A stretch of 32,000 bases of DNA from Candidatus Heimdallarchaeota archaeon (GCA_030668875.1 DAOVER010000017.1:1-32000), one strand, 5' to 3'; positions 22,859 to 27,758 are shown, numbered from the stretch's first letter. The notes: generated from the letters alone by a model not told the origin. Program-made: numbers and translations.

Positions 22859-23422
22859 ATGACAGAAGAGCAGGGTAAGAAATATATCTTCAAGATTGTT
22901 TTACTTGGAGATCCAGGGGTAGGAAAAAGCTCCCTAATTACAAGATTTGTACATAACAGATTTCAATCTTCATATTTAATGACAATTGGTGTTGATATAT
23001 TAAGTAAACAACTCTTTGTAGGAAAGGATGAGGTTCTTTTTCTTATAAGTGATATTGGTGGTCAAGAAAGATTTGCTTCAGTCAGGGAGAAATTCTATCG
23101 TGGTTCGAGAGGTTGCTTTCTAGTCTTTGATCTTACAAGAGAAAACACCTTAACTTCAGTAAAGGCATGGAAAAAAGGTCTAGATGCTGTTGAAGAAGAT
23201 GTAATTTATTTCTTGATTGGGAACAAAGCAGATTTGAAAGAACAAGTATCAGTTTCAGATGAAAGTATACAAGCAATAATCGAGGAACTAAATTTACCAA
23301 AAGAGACATTTTTCATAACCTCAGCTAAAACTGGAGAAAAAGTTGAGGAAGCATTTGTTACTTTTTCAAAGGAATTGATAAAAGCAGTCGAGAAAAAAAG
23401 GGTAGAAGTAGGTTTAGATTAA
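22859..23422 (+). CDS. Rab-like small GTPase (Ras superfamily)
   Basis: FKIVLLGDPGVGKS (G1), TIGVD (G2), DIGGQERF (G3), GNKAD (G4), TSAK (G5); no C-terminal Cys. Confidence 0.92.
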   Translation: MTEEQGKKYIFKIVLLGDPGVGKSSLITRFVHNRFQSSYLMTIGVDILSKQLFVGKDEVLFLISDIGGQERFASVREKFYRGSRGCFLVFDLTRENTLTSVKAWKKGLDAVEEDVIYFLIGNKADLKEQVSVSDESIQAIIEELNLPKETFFITSAKTGEKVEEAFVTFSKELIKAVEKKRVEVGLD

Positions 23423-23490: not shown

Positions 23491-24465
23491 ATGGATGATT
23501 CCACAATAAATTGGCTATTAGATGCAGAACCTTGGGTAGAATACAAAACTAGATTAGATATACTTGGTCAATCTCCTAAATCCAATGAAATGATATTAGC
23601 TAAAAAAAAGATGATAAATGATTCACAAGTCAAATTTTTGTTAAATGAAGTTCAAAAATGGCCTAAACCTCCATTGAAAAGACATAATGATGCTTCTCAC
23701 CCTATTCATAAACTAGCTTTTTTAACAGATATTGGAATAAAGCAAGATAACGAAATATTAAGTGAGATCTTAAAGAAAATCATTAACACTCAAGCTGATG
23801 ATGGAGGTCTACAGATTTTAGTAAATATACCAACTAGATTTGGTGGAACTGGGGAAGACCAGCTTAGTTGGATGTTATGTGATGCTCCTTTACTTCTTTA
23901 TGTTCTGCTTAAAAGTGGGATGGACGTTGAAAAAACAGCAGGAAAGACAGTGAAACTGTTAAAGGAATTGGTAAGAGACAATGGCTGGCCATGTAGCGCA
24001 TCACAAAACCTAGGTAAATTTAGGGGACCAGGGAGAAAAAGTGATCCATGTCCATACGCTAATCTCCTCATAGTTAAAGCATTATCGCAAAAAACAGAAT
24101 GGAGAGATAGTAGGGAATGTAGAACAGGTGCAGAGACATTGTTGAATTTGTGGGAACATCGGAAGGAGATGAAACCATACTTATTTGGAATGGGTACTCG
24201 TTTTAAGAAGTTGAAGGCACCTTTGATTTGGTATGATATTTTACATGTAGTTGATGTTCTATCGAGACTTCCTTGGTTAAGAAAAGATGAAAGATTGCAA
24301 GAAATGGTACAAATTATAATACAAAAGGCAAATGAAGAGGGAAAATATTATGCAGAATCTGTTTGGAGAGCTTGGGGCGGCTGGTCATTTGGACAAAAAA
24401 AGAACCCATCAGAGTGGATAACTTATTTGGTATATACAATATTTAAAAGGATGGAGATAGGGTAA
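23491..24465 (+). CDS. Hypothetical protein, probable alpha/alpha-barrel (prenyltransferase/terpene-cyclase-like fold)
   Basis: QADDGG, NGWPC, CPYANL, WYDILH and Trp-rich repeats; family recalled as conserved but uncharacterised. Confidence 0.55.
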   Translation: MDDSTINWLLDAEPWVEYKTRLDILGQSPKSNEMILAKKKMINDSQVKFLLNEVQKWPKPPLKRHNDASHPIHKLAFLTDIGIKQDNEILSEILKKIINTQADDGGLQILVNIPTRFGGTGEDQLSWMLCDAPLLLYVLLKSGMDVEKTAGKTVKLLKELVRDNGWPCSASQNLGKFRGPGRKSDPCPYANLLIVKALSQKTEWRDSRECRTGAETLLNLWEHRKEMKPYLFGMGTRFKKLKAPLIWYDILHVVDVLSRLPWLRKDERLQEMVQIIIQKANEEGKYYAESVWRAWGGWSFGQKKNPSEWITYLVYTIFKRMEIG

Positions 24466-24521
24466 ATCAAAAGAAGACGACCAAACATTTACTAAATCAA
24501 ACACCTATTTAATTAGAAAAA

Positions 24522-24630
24522 TGGCGAGGCAACCGGGATAAACATCACTTAGAGCGCGTCTAACACGATTTTGAACCCGGGTCCATGGAGTGACAGTCCA
24601 CGATCATCGGCCGAACTAAACTATTGCCCC
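24522..24630 (-). tRNA. tRNA-Asp(GTC) with 31-nt intron in the T-loop, encoded CCA
   Basis: Minus strand: GGGGCAA...GTGGA CTGTCAC TCCAT GGAC CCGGG TTCAAA[31 nt]T CCCGG TTGCCTC G CCA; anticodon at 24594-24592, discriminator G. Confidence 0.88.
24539..24569 (-). other. Non-canonical tRNA intron at 59/60 (58/59 gives the same product)
   Basis: ATCGTGTTAGACGCGCTCTAAGTGATGTTTA folds as a hairpin (TTAGA/TCTAA, ATCG/TGAT); removal restores TTCAAAT. Confidence 0.75.
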
Positions 24631-24757
24631 GCAGTTATTTCTTTTCTCTTTACAACTTTTTTTAAATATGTCGGTTATTACTAATATATTTACCACTTCC
24701 ATAGCCATGCGTTCTCAATTCGATATATTTTTATTTACAATCTTCTCATACATGTTA

Positions 24758-25411
24758 ATGAAAAGAACCCAACTGTTCTTAGTGATTCTCCTTTCGTTAG
24801 TTGTGGTACAATATATGCCATCCGATAGTTTAGCAGCTATTCCTGTTGTTGAAGATGGTGATATGCTCGCTTTTGGTTATACACTAACAGCAGATGCTTC
24901 AATAGTGGAAATCTATACTGAAGAAAATCCTCGACGAATTTTCGTTAGAGTGGGCACTTTTACTCCACCTGGTCTTTACAATGCTCTTCTTGGCATGGCT
25001 CTTGGCACAAATAAAGATGTAGTCGTTCCTCCAGAAGAAGGTTTTCTTCCTACAGACATTGATCATGCCGACTTGGCTGGCTTAACATTATACTACACCA
25101 ATCTCAAGGTTTTCGAAATAAATGGTTTATATTATACAGACCTTCCTACAAATGGAACTGAACCTGGTTCTTTCGGATATTATGCAATTAGGGTGGGTTT
25201 GGGACTTGTTGGAGCAGCTGCTTTTGTAGGATTAGTGTATGGCGGTTACCGTTTATATCCTAAGGTTTTCGGAAAGAGATGTGCAATATGTAAAACTCTT
25301 GCAATTGGTACATGCACAAAATGCGGAAGAAAATTCTGTGAAAGATGTTATTCTAATGGCTGTCCTTACTGCAAGGCTAGAACACTGATAAGATTTAAAT
25401 CCTCCTCTTAA
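24758..25411 (+). CDS. Signal peptide - FKBP-like domain - TM - C8 zinc-finger membrane protein (paralog 1)
   Basis: GDMLAFGYTL...PGLYNALLGMALG...VVVPPEEGF...LAGLTLYY (FKBP/SlyD-like); TM IRVGLGLVGAAAFVGLVYGGY; CAIC-x7-CTKC-x4-CERC-x4-CPYC. Start reassigned to ATG 24758. Confidence 0.8.
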   Translation: MKRTQLFLVILLSLVVVQYMPSDSLAAIPVVEDGDMLAFGYTLTADASIVEIYTEENPRRIFVRVGTFTPPGLYNALLGMALGTNKDVVVPPEEGFLPTDIDHADLAGLTLYYTNLKVFEINGLYYTDLPTNGTEPGSFGYYAIRVGLGLVGAAAFVGLVYGGYRLYPKVFGKRCAICKTLAIGTCTKCGRKFCERCYSNGCPYCKARTLIRFKSSS

Positions 25412-26064
25412 TGTCCATCTCCGAAATTCTTTTAAGTTTCTATAAGTCATTCGTCATAATGGTTTCCCGCAAAAAACTAGTAGGATCCTTTATAGTACTG
25501 GTTACCCTCTTAATTCAAATTGCAGCTATATCCAGTGCATACGATGATGTTCAAGGAATAGAATTAAACGATGTAATTGATATTTCATTTGATCGTTATA
25601 TAGATGGTATTCAAGAATCAGGTTACGATGATGAGAACCCTTTTGAGTTAATTGTGAATAAAAAATACATTAATGAGATATTTGTTCTTGAAATGATTGG
25701 TATGAAAGTTGGTGAAGTTAAACCAAGCATTAAGTGGACGGTGGATGAAGGAGGAGGAATTTTCACCGAATATGAATATGTTAACACAAAGATTATTCGA
25801 ATAGTTAAAGATGCTACTCCTGCAATTAGTCCTATTGGTCAGACTGTTCTAATTATTTTTGAGGTTATTCTCGTAATCGGAGCGGTAGTTGGTGCTATCT
25901 TCTTGTATCTCAAAGTCATTCGTCCTCGCTATCTCAGTAAGAAATGTTTGACATGTGGAAACCAGGCTACTTCCAAATGCTCTAAATGTGGACGATTCAT
26001 TTGCTCAGAATGCTCAGTTAAAGGCTGTCCAAGTTGTGGAAGTCAAAAATATATCCGTCTCTAA
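25411..26064 (+). CDS. Signal peptide - degenerate FKBP-like domain - TM - C8 zinc-finger membrane protein (paralog 2)
   Basis: NDVIDISF...NPFELIV...MIGMKVGE; TM VLIIFEVILVIGAVVGAIFLYL; CLTC-x7-CSKC-x4-CSEC-x4-CPSC. ATG overlaps the upstream TAA (ATG 25459 is an alternative). Confidence 0.8.
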   Translation: MSISEILLSFYKSFVIMVSRKKLVGSFIVLVTLLIQIAAISSAYDDVQGIELNDVIDISFDRYIDGIQESGYDDENPFELIVNKKYINEIFVLEMIGMKVGEVKPSIKWTVDEGGGIFTEYEYVNTKIIRIVKDATPAISPIGQTVLIIFEVILVIGAVVGAIFLYLKVIRPRYLSKKCLTCGNQATSKCSKCGRFICSECSVKGCPSCGSQKYIRL

Positions 26065-26130
26065 TTTCTTCAAATTAATAGAAGAATTTTTTAATTTCAT
26101 CTAAATCTTTGGTACAACATCCAAGTAAGT

Positions 26131-26213
26131 GCCAGGATAGCCAAGCGGTACGGCGGGGGTCTCGAAAACCTCTGGTATTAGCCTCCGGGGTTCAAATCCC
26201 CGTCCTGGCTCCA
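26131..26213 (+). tRNA. tRNA-Ser(CGA), encoded CCA
   Basis: GCCAGGA/TCCTGGC acceptor, GGGGT CTCGAAA ACCTC anticodon arm, 13-nt variable region, CGGGG TTCAAAT CCCCG. Confidence 0.92.
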
Positions 26214-26321
26214 TTTCTAGAAATAGCGCCTCTCTTGTAACAATGTGTTTCTCTTTAGCTACTATTATTTCATTAAGTTTTTAATTGTTTGAGTTTTATT
26301 TCGTTTATAGGTTTGAGAATA

Positions 26322-27758
26322 ATGGTTTCTCCAAAGTTTCGTATTAGAAGTATTTATGATGTGCCCATTATCAAATTGATTTTGGATAATCTTGATTATG
26401 AACTTGTTCAACCAGATTTTAAACAAGCAAAACTGTTTGATGTAAAAGACAAGGTGTTTTCCTATGATATCGAAATCATCGATATATTAGACGGGTATGG
26501 GGCTTCGATTGAGGGTGAAGAAGAGTATGTGTCAGCTATAACCTCTCTTCTTCTAGAGAAGATACCCAACTCGATAAGACTTCAGCACCCTGTGCAGTTA
26601 CATGCAGTATACAATGGCAAGGTTGTTCACGTGAACCATGAGAAAAATCTGTCTGTTGTTGATATTGGAGAAAATATTAATACTATTATGTTTGGTTCAG
26701 ATTTTCATAGAGGACAGAAAATAGTTGTTCAAATAAAGCAATTAAACATTTTTGAAGATCAACTTCCGGTTTGTTCTACTATAATTCATTTTCCTGGACA
26801 AACAGTAATTCTTGAAAGAGATGCAAACTTTGTAAGAGTTTCTAGGAAGCTTCCTAAAGCAGATAGAGATAGACTATTTGAGTTAGGTAAGAAATTGTGC
26901 CCCAGGGATCACGGGTTAATTATGAGAACTAGTGCAAGTTCTTCATCTTCTGAAGCTATTCAAGCGGATATTGACCATCTCGTACAAGGGGCAGAAGAGC
27001 TTGACCTTCTTATATCTGGTTCATCCTATGGTCCAGGTATACTACAACCAGGTCAAACTGTTGCACATACACTATTCCCAAAAGATGCAAAAGACACCCT
27101 TACTAACATCAGAAATGAGGTTATTCCAACAATTCCCTTGTATCATTGGTTCATGTCTTATTCCCCTGAACTTAAAATTACTACAATGTTTGCAGAAAAA
27201 ATATCCTCTGAAATAGAAGGAGAAAAACTCTCGCAAATTTTGAAGCAATTAATATTGGAAAAAGACTTTTCAGATAACACTCTCATTCGACTACAAGAAT
27301 ATAGGTTGACCTCTCCTCCACAAGAAAGAGTATTAGGTCAGCTGAATATCAAGGATAATATATTAACAATAAAAAGAAGCTTCCGATCTTCCCGCGGAGT
27401 TCATTATGGATTAAGTTCTGATATACAACAAGGTGACACTTCAATCGTCATTACAAAGGAAGGAAGTTGGACAATACACTCAAAAATATCACGTGATGAA
27501 AAGATTATTGGTGAGCTTGTAAAGGTTGTAACACCAATTGAGCTTTTCGAGGGTAGTCGTATCCGATTTATTGATTTAGGTTTAACTATTATTAAGCAGA
27601 GTGGTGATATAGAAGTTAAAGATGAGGGCTTAGTACGCACTTTATCCGATCAAGGTATAATCTCTTCGACTTTCAAAGACAAGATATATTCATTATTCGA
27701 AGAGTGTCAAAAACAAATGGAAGATGGAAACGAGGAAATTTTAATCCTTTCTGAATAA
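26322..27758 (+). CDS. fau-1: FAU-1-like ribonuclease (RNase E/G-like N-terminus + DUF402 C-terminus)
   Basis: FRIRSIY...KLILD...LVQPD N-terminus, RVSRKL..DRDRL..LG, GLIMRTSA, VTPIEL..IRFIDL; start reassigned to ATG 26322. Confidence 0.7.
   Translation: MVSPKFRIRSIYDVPIIKLILDNLDYELVQPDFKQAKLFDVKDKVFSYDIEIIDILDGYGASIEGEEEYVSAITSLLLEKIPNSIRLQHPVQLHAVYNGKVVHVNHEKNLSVVDIGENINTIMFGSDFHRGQKIVVQIKQLNIFEDQLPVCSTIIHFPGQTVILERDANFVRVSRKLPKADRDRLFELGKKLCPRDHGLIMRTSASSSSSEAIQADIDHLVQGAEELDLLISGSSYGPGILQPGQTVAHTLFPKDAKDTLTNIRNEVIPTIPLYHWFMSYSPELKITTMFAEKISSEIEGEKLSQILKQLILEKDFSDNTLIRLQEYRLTSPPQERVLGQLNIKDNILTIKRSFRSSRGVHYGLSSDIQQGDTSIVITKEGSWTIHSKISRDEKIIGELVKVVTPIELFEGSRIRFIDLGLTIIKQSGDIEVKDEGLVRTLSDQGIISSTFKDKIYSLFEECQKQMEDGNEEILILSE

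Follow-up and report, generated by a model that had tools for sequence, protein, structure and literature searches.

Several kinds of folding catalyst are known on either side of the cytoplasmic membrane. The bacterial foldases PpiD and PrsA have parvulin domains; bacterial foldases use N-terminal or lipid anchors and carry no cytoplasmic zinc finger. FKBPs of the SlyD and MjFKBP26 type are cytosolic and contain the insert-in-flap (IF) chaperone domain. Human FKBP11 is a transmembrane (TM) FKBP that binds ribosome-bound translocons via a positively charged cytosolic C-terminal helix; this helix adjoins uL22 and the 28S rRNA and is required for binding ribosome-associated translocons (PMC12804085). 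Little is known about protein folding outside the cytoplasm of archaea. Here we describe two adjacent genes, FKBP-A (ORF1) and FKBP-B (ORF2), in a stretch of 32,000 nucleotides from Candidatus Heimdallarchaeota archaeon (GCA_030668875.1 DAOVER010000017.1:1-32000), in the following called the window. Both proteins are predicted to consist of a signal peptide, an exported FKBP-fold domain, one TM helix and a basic zinc finger with eight cysteines, and the same TM helix and finger occur on a thioredoxin-fold protein encoded in the same genome.

The open reading frame (ORF) ORF1 extends from 24758 to 25411 on the + strand (217 amino acids (aa) plus stop codon). ORF2 lies on the same strand and ends at 26064; it starts at 25411 or at 25459, giving a protein of 217 or 201 aa. 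A first-pass annotation, made from the sequence alone, had proposed both ORFs, and both were found. The genes and the parts of their products are the following:

24758..25411, + strand: ORF1 (FKBP-A), 37 homologs, called mostly from MKRT or MLMKRT
24758..24838, + strand: ORF1 predicted signal peptide, aa 1 to about 27, with an MKR n-region, a hydrophobic core and the end SLAA before IP
24839..25132, + strand: ORF1 predicted extracytoplasmic FKBP domain, aa about 28-125, without IF insert
25172..25252, + strand: ORF1 predicted TM helix, aa about 139-165 (AlphaFold2 helix 139-171, hydropathy peak 142-146)
25280..25408, + strand: ORF1 predicted cytoplasmic all-Cys B-box-like zinc finger plus C-terminal strand, aa 175-217, with eight invariant Cys
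25459..26064, + strand: ORF2 (FKBP-B), 201 aa plus stop codon, with the MVSRKK start of its homologs
25459..25539, + strand: ORF2 predicted signal peptide, aa 1-27, from MVSRKK to ISSA before YDD, by hydropathy
25540..25812, + strand: ORF2 apparently degenerate FKBP-fold ectodomain, aa about 28-118 (AlphaFold2, Foldseek, TIGR00115)
25834..25908, + strand: ORF2 predicted TM helix, aa about 126-150 (AlphaFold2 helix 126-159, hydropathy peak 121-138)
25945..26061, + strand: ORF2 predicted cytoplasmic all-Cys B-box-like zinc finger, aa 163-201, by Cys spacing and B-box matches

Each protein has two hydrophobic segments, one at the N-terminus, preceded by basic n-region residues, and a TM helix further on. 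The signal peptide of ORF1 is apparent in hydropathy windows and in the AlphaFold2 model, where an N-terminal helix (residues 3-18) is followed by a low-confidence linker; A26 is nearly invariant. In the ORF2 family A27 is nearly invariant and Y28 invariant. The expected cleavage sites are behind SLAA (ORF1) and ISSA (ORF2). The net charge of both ectodomains is -11, and the tails carry +11 (ORF1) and +10 (ORF2); over 42 tails of the family the charge ranges from +5 to +12 with a mean of +8.5. Because these opposite charges fit the positive-inside rule, the FKBP domain was placed outside and the finger inside the cell. No Cys is found outside the finger in either protein. We have little doubt that both are type-I membrane proteins, each composed of a signal peptide, an outward FKBP domain, one TM helix and a cytoplasmic C8 finger. 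The first-pass annotation had suggested this layout, with basic residues behind the TM helix on the cytoplasmic side, and hydropathy, the AlphaFold2 models, the fold matches and the charges bear it out.

The AlphaFold2 models were made from the family alignments, and the predicted local distance difference test (pLDDT) values of the ectodomains were 92-97 for ORF1 and 83-92 for ORF2. Both modelled ectodomains adopt the FKBP fold, a five-stranded sheet round a short helix. Foldseek, which had been named as a check of the FKBP assignment, found this fold in both models: the ORF1 model matched FKBP13 (TMt 0.75-0.79), and the ORF2 model matched SlyD-deltaIF and FKBP13 with a TMt of about 0.6. Further structure matches of the ORF1 model were SlyD (13.1; root mean square deviation 1.6 over 84 residues), FKBP12 (12.1), FKBP13 (12.0), FKBP11 (11.4) and MjFKBP26 (11.3, at 33% identity). 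In ORF2 no match to the Pfam family FKBP_C was found; its ectodomain matched the peptidyl-prolyl isomerase (PPIase) segment of trigger factor, TIGR00115, with E 0.0013. Several homologs of ORF1 bear a precomputed match to FKBP_C (PF00254).

The pocket of FKBP12 is formed by Y26, F36/D37, V55/I56, W59, Y82 and F99. In HMMER alignments to MjFKBP26 and wheat FKBP73, the near-invariant residues Y41, E51, P70-x-G72-L73 and G95-F96 of the ORF1 family and an aromatic residue in the last strand fall on FKBP pocket positions; the pattern, with V/I50 before E51, resembles that of MjFKBP26. The equivalents of W59 and Y82 are L and F in ORF1; MjFKBP26 likewise has L and F at two pocket positions. As judged from these alignments, ORF1 appears to keep a substrate pocket of the archaeal/SlyD type. 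The ORF2 family has other residues in place of the PxGL and PPxxG[FY] motifs, and ORF2 looks catalytically degenerate, with its pocket motifs lost. In the single-copy relatives from a sister family of the same order the FKBP domain is canonical (match to wheat FKBP with E 9e-14; Y, FD, LIEGF, GY and F at the pocket positions) and is joined to a TM helix as in the pair and a variant of the finger. Since these single copies are canonical, the ancestral protein was probably an ordinary exported PPIase.

The second part common to both proteins is the finger. Its spacing, Cx2C-x7-Cx2C-x4-Cx2C-x4-Cx2C, had been noticed as identical in both proteins and is indeed kept in 61 of 62 sequences, the exception being a partial record. 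It had also been stated that both proteins end in IRF or IRL. This is true of ORF2 (...YIRL), whereas in ORF1 the IRF is followed by KSSS (...LIRFKSSS). When the isolated tail of ORF1 was compared with Pfam, ANCHR-like_BBOX (E 6.6e-4, 20.2 bits) and zf-B_box (E 0.013, 16.0 bits) were matched; the whole ORF2 protein matched zf-B_box with E 0.0078. All 42 isolated tails match zf-B_box (best E 2.2e-5) and ANCHR-like_BBOX (best E 1.3e-4), always below the Pfam gathering cut-offs of 24.1 bits (zf-B_box, PF00643) and 27 bits (ANCHR-like_BBOX, PF22586). The B-box families score above the RING families in 42 of 42 tails, and RING families match 7-12 of the 42, with E 0.026 or weaker.

A profile of the tail was compared with 1.84 billion representative sequences, and 33 proteins were found at E <=0.001. 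The strong matches are FKBP-A, FKBP-B and redoxin forms, and the weaker ones include proteins with multiple B-boxes that pass the Pfam B-box cut-offs. The kinship to the B-box is transitive, because the tail profile reaches proteins that pass the cut-off of ANCHR-like_BBOX or zf-B_box. The first six ligands of a B-box follow Cx2C-x6-17-Cx2C-x4-8-Cx2-3[CH]. The tail has eight ligands, the first six with spacing of the B-box type, and ligands 7 and 8 are Cx2C and not His; in relatives ligand 6 may be exchanged from Cys to His, which is a typical variation of B-boxes. The AlphaFold2 models show a hairpin and, in ORF2, then a short helix at the third pair, which is compatible with the secondary structure of a B-box. 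Look-alikes of the tail in the ESM Atlas all scored <=0.77 and were uninformative. RING domains have the spacing Cx2C-x9-39-Cx1-3H-x2-3-Cx2C-x4-48-Cx2C (C3HC4 or RING-H2). This spacing is not present in the tail, which has x7 where at least 9 residues are required in a RING, x4 instead of 2-3 from ligand 4 to ligand 5, and no His, all ligands being Cys. Of the B-box/RING-like finger of the first-pass annotation the B-box part is retained: its sequence points to a divergent all-Cys B-box. As a side observation, a soluble protein of 95 aa encoded in the same genome (G000:C13, L007:1324-1611, - strand) contains an N-terminal B-box-like Cys cluster and matches the tail profile weakly (E 0.017); judged by this match, it may be a relative of the finger in the cytoplasm.

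The search of the window's own genome with the tail profile yielded a third gene (G000:C84, L006:817-1629, + strand), encoding 270 aa. Its product has a signal peptide, an AhpC-TSA/Redoxin domain with the motif WCPPC, a TM helix and a C8 finger ending in KFIRL. The domain passes both Pfam cut-offs (AhpC-TSA 66.5 bits, cut-off 26; Redoxin 61.3 bits, cut-off 26.6; E 2.8e-18), and by sequence the protein resembles thiol-disulfide oxidoreductases of the TlpA/ResA type, which would give it a thioredoxin fold. The tail of this redoxin is of the ORF2 type, with 60-63% identity to ORF2-type tails versus 41-45% to ORF1-type tails. At least ten further genomes of the family encode redoxins with this tail. 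Since the redoxin bears the TM helix and the finger as well, the module is common to two kinds of extracytoplasmic folding catalyst.

The relationship between ORF1 and ORF2 extends beyond this module. By BLASTP the TM helix and finger alone align (37% identity, E 3e-12); the ectodomains had been noted as strongly diverged. The hhalign comparison of the two families gave 99.8% probability over 208 columns at 22% identity, i.e. homology over the full length. Because the profile alignment spans the whole length, ORF1 and ORF2 are old paralogs throughout. Homolog clusters numbered 37 for ORF1 and 22 for ORF2, and the named ones all belong to Heimdallarchaeota or to Asgard metagenome bins. In the sources these proteins are called 'hypothetical protein' and once 'FKBP-type peptidyl-prolyl cis-trans isomerase'.

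Of 399 Asgard genomes, 39 contain the tail. In the home family, with the window's own genome left out, 28 of 29 genomes have it in 1-4 copies each. Single, weaker copies occur in the sister families of the order (7/12 and 1/1 genomes), another family of the class has the tail in 2 of 22 genomes, and in the remaining families of the phylum it was found in none of 335 genomes. The tail is confined to a part of the Heimdallarchaeia. In three genera of the home family the pair stays in tandem in the order A then B, whereas a single copy stands alone in two home-family genera and in the sister-family genomes examined. Three genomes contain a triple tandem (G037, G020 and G021; L011:943-2944, L013 and L024), the middle gene of which combines an ORF2-like ectodomain with an ORF1-like tail. 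The sequence of this middle copy points to recombination between the paralogs.

From these findings we favour the explanation that the proteins are membrane-tethered extracytoplasmic foldases whose basic tail docks on a cytoplasmic partner; taken as a whole, we give it an even chance. The FKBP-type domains would face outward from the cytoplasmic membrane. ORF1 would most likely act there as a prolyl isomerase or as a holding chaperone for proteins emerging from the membrane, and ORF2, as an old tandem duplicate, would probably be a non-catalytic binding or partner subunit. That the proteins have a foldase or chaperone role at all we consider rather probable. The very basic finger of about 45 residues behind the TM helix would bring the folding catalysts to one partner at the cytoplasmic face, or would cluster them. 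It was read as a shared docking or assembly module because TM helix and finger are also fused to a thioredoxin-fold oxidoreductase, and for this part of the explanation the balance is level. The preferred partner would be the translating ribosome or the Sec translocon, a choice modelled on human FKBP11 and its basic cytosolic tail; this specific partner is proposed tentatively and is rather unlikely to be the right one. It is doubtful that the finger recruits the prolyl isomerase, its degenerate partner and the oxidoreductase to chains under translocation at the ribosome or Sec translocon. If it did, these proteins would be a Heimdallarchaeial counterpart, by descent or convergence, of the translocon foldases of the endoplasmic reticulum (FKBP11 and TMX-type thioredoxins).

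Several points weigh against this explanation. The score of ORF1 against FKBP_C is at or just below the cut-off of 21.1 bits (19.3 bits; 21.0 bits in the six-frame search, and 21.3 bits with the neighbours in frame), and its activity could be weak or absent, the equivalents of W59 and Y82 being L and F. The fold-search lists were filled by the FKBP domain, so that the fold of the finger was barely probed by VIA and Foldseek. The foldase and docking roles are drawn from sequence, models and analogy, and self-assembly, lipid binding or a regulatory role would fit the finger equally well. The likeness to FKBP11 concerns the layout alone, the tails being unrelated. Among the neighbouring genes no link to Sec or ribosome components was found.

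We considered three other explanations. First, the fingers could bind each other or anionic lipids and so gather the FKBP and thioredoxin-like proteins in patches, needing no other partner in the cytoplasm, or they could simply lock the C-terminus inside the cell for topology and stability. In favour of this alternative are the kinship to B-boxes, those of TRIM proteins being known to bind each other, the presence of the module on three proteins of one genome, the net charge of +5 to +12 across the 42 tails, and sub-threshold matches to FYVE-type domains in 12 of 42 tails. Eight invariant Cys and flanking residues that hardly vary, in proteins with an overall identity of 45%, are however more than a passive anchor would need. 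We regard this first alternative as unlikely.

Second, the proteins could be transmembrane sensors, as the first-pass annotation had proposed: the ectodomains, perhaps as an A/B heterodimer, would bind unfolded or proline-rich peptides and signal via the TM helix to the finger, altering the binding of a partner or the expression of genes. The one-pass layout of ectodomain, TM helix and finger would suit a sensor, a degenerate ORF2 would match a role in binding only, and three home-family genera keep A and B as a tandem. What speaks most strongly against a dedicated peptide sensor is that the tail is also found on the ectodomain of a redox enzyme, which is hard to reconcile with it. Moreover, neither a response regulator nor a kinase or transcription factor is conserved beside the pair, where the synteny is of housekeeping genes only, and two home-family genera and the sister-family genomes examined have a single copy. 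The complex prediction of ORF1 27-217 with ORF2 25-201 and 4 Zn returned no answer (score 0.00) and counts neither way for a heterodimer. No positive evidence for a peptide or folding sensor, or for a heterodimer, was found, and we consider such a sensor distinctly improbable.

Third, a membrane-bound ubiquitin ligase (E3), the quality-control output that had been suggested for the pair and in which a RING- or B-box-type finger would tag membrane or secretory proteins with the help of E2-like proteins of the host, is very improbable: the genome does contain four UQ_con (E2) matches above the Pfam cut-off (G000:C68, C80, C64 and C91), so that candidate partners are not lacking, RING families and individual RING chains, BIRC7 (E 0.019) and RNF4 among them, are matched weakly below threshold, and E3 activity has been reported for some B-boxes, but the spacing and the ranking of B-box over RING families given above do not agree with a RING, the tail is just about 45 residues long without a further domain, no ubiquitin-system gene is conserved near the pair, the four E2-like matches lying elsewhere, and no positive evidence for such an output was obtained.

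A separate question concerns the start of ORF2. The stop codon of ORF1 (TAA, 25409-25411) shares a base with an ATG at 25411-25413, and from this TAATG overlap, which is present as reported, translational coupling of the two ORFs had been concluded. In most called homologs of ORF2, however, MVSRKK is the start, which equals position 25459 in the window. The spacer, which measures 47-54 nt from the ORF1 stop to the ATG of the MVSRKK type, can be translated in frame as 'FEILLSF' in many related loci, in most of which this reading has no upstream start codon. Upstream of both genes a conserved element was found that resembles a transcription factor B recognition element (BRE) with a TATA box:

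24719..24733, + strand: BRE/TATA-like element before ORF1, TTCGATATATTTTTA, kept as TTCGATAnnTTTTTA in home-family loci
25422..25436, + strand: conserved spacer element CGAAATTCTTTTAAG, BRE/TATA-like, with its core in 21 of 21 spacers

The core of the spacer element, GAAATT[CT]TTTTA, is present in all 21 spacers; its distance to the downstream ATG is fixed and free of gaps, whereas that to the ORF1 stop varies. The TTTTAA of CGAAATTCTTTTAAG lies at -29 to -24 from the ATG at 25459. Before ORF1, TTCGATAnnTTTTTA stands at a near-constant distance from the start across the home-family loci, and in the window the ATG at 24758 follows 37 nt after the C of CGA in TTCGATATATTTTTA. The spacing from CGA to ATG is 37 nt for both motifs, which presumably were duplicated along with the gene. 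From position and sequence we infer that both are BRE/TATA promoters for leaderless transcripts. ORF2 probably runs from 25459 to 26064 with its own BRE/TATA-like element, because the spacer is conserved as a nucleotide motif and most homologs begin at MVSRKK; in this genome a start at 25411 may be an alternative. Coupling via TAATG is unlikely, because the BRE/TATA-like elements look placed for leaderless transcripts. A longer ORF1 frame starting at 24668 was rejected as well, since the homologs begin at MKRT and the promoter-like motif sits within that frame. Both motifs are nearly unchanged in a family whose proteins drop to about 45% identity, and such tight conservation is unexplained for a promoter.

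The exact 15-mer CGAAATTCTTTTAAG is single-copy, and at <=1 mismatch it is unique in the genome. A looser pattern of the ORF1 motif has 4 matches in the 3.2 Mb genome. Of these four sites two are intragenic and one stands before an unrelated gene of 512 aa, and the upstream region of the redoxin gene does not contain the BRE/TATA-like motif; a regulon is not indicated. The sequencing runs that were searched for RNA proved to be DNA runs alone, from marine sediment and cold-seep metagenomes. The Rfam search of 24300-26400 gave a tRNA-Ser as its sole call and left the spacer empty. This tRNA-Ser(CGA) lies at 26131-26213, between the pair and the FAU-1 gene. An intron-bearing tRNA-Asp that had been annotated at 24522-24630 was called neither by ARAGORN nor by Rfam in that region. 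In several related loci (L001, L003, L009 and L018) a tRNA-like 3' end, GGGTTCAAATCCCGG, is found about 35 nt upstream of the promoter motif of ORF A.

The pair is embedded in a syntenic block consisting of amidohydrolase, GHMP kinase, HIT, Ras-like GTPase, the pair, RNase E/G-like FAU-1, DUF2797 and cysteine desulfurase. Across genera, no neighbour of the pair is more constant than the FAU-1 gene (26289-27758). In many home-genus genomes a Ras-family small GTPase (22859-23422 in the window; Pfam Ras E 3.5e-43) is the adjacent gene upstream of the pair, and in the window a gene of 324 aa without a Pfam match (23491-24465) lies in between. A functional link to the Ras-like GTPase was considered and rejected: a second genus has the 324-aa gene at this place, a third genus has other neighbours, and what is seen is synteny only.

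If docking at the translocon is true, co-translational folding stations at the translocon would already have existed in the closest archaeal relatives of eukaryotes. If the tail is only a device for clustering or stability, it would be a lineage-specific domain shuffle of modest interest. The shared, very basic tail of 45 residues is a cheap and concrete handle on what organises extracytoplasmic folding and on a tie to the ribosome or translocon.

A search of the literature revealed no described family with this architecture, which agrees with the first-pass annotation. New are the redoxin that bears this tail, the count of the tail across Asgard genomes, the outgroup of canonical single copies and the promoter evidence that speaks against coupling. 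Among known systems, the PA-TM-RING E3 ligases also present an ectodomain, a single TM helix and a cytosolic zinc-binding domain in that order, but the ectodomain of the window proteins is an FKBP and not a PA domain, and their finger is without RING-H2 spacing. With the B-box (PF00643, PF22586) the finger shares the core Cx2C-x7-Cx2C-x4-Cx2C and a conserved Ala between the first two pairs. Unlike B-boxes, it scores below the cut-offs, has Cx2C at x4 as its last two ligands instead of His, and is fused right behind the TM helix of a putative exported enzyme. The bacterial proteins PpiD, PrsA and TlpA/ResA are folding catalysts tethered on the outer face of the cytoplasmic membrane, as the window proteins would be. 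In contrast to SlyD and MjFKBP26, the window proteins lack the IF domain, are exported and membrane-anchored, and continue into a zinc finger.

The closest likeness in layout is that to human FKBP11 (FKBP19; PDB 9n9j/9ygy), which also has a signal peptide, a lumenal or external FKBP domain, one TM helix and a basic cytosolic tail, and chains of which were among the structural matches of both the ORF1 and the ORF2 model. The tail of FKBP11 is a basic helix, whereas that of the archaeal proteins is a zinc finger. With a profile E of 0.021, FKBP11 is no closer than other FKBPs, and nothing points to orthology. Furthermore, the archaeal proteins form a diverged pair and have their tail in common with a redoxin. 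With this family the Heimdallarchaeia, the closest known relatives of eukaryotes, have a membrane-tethered FKBP of the FKBP11 layout and a putative thioredoxin-fold enzyme on the same anchor.

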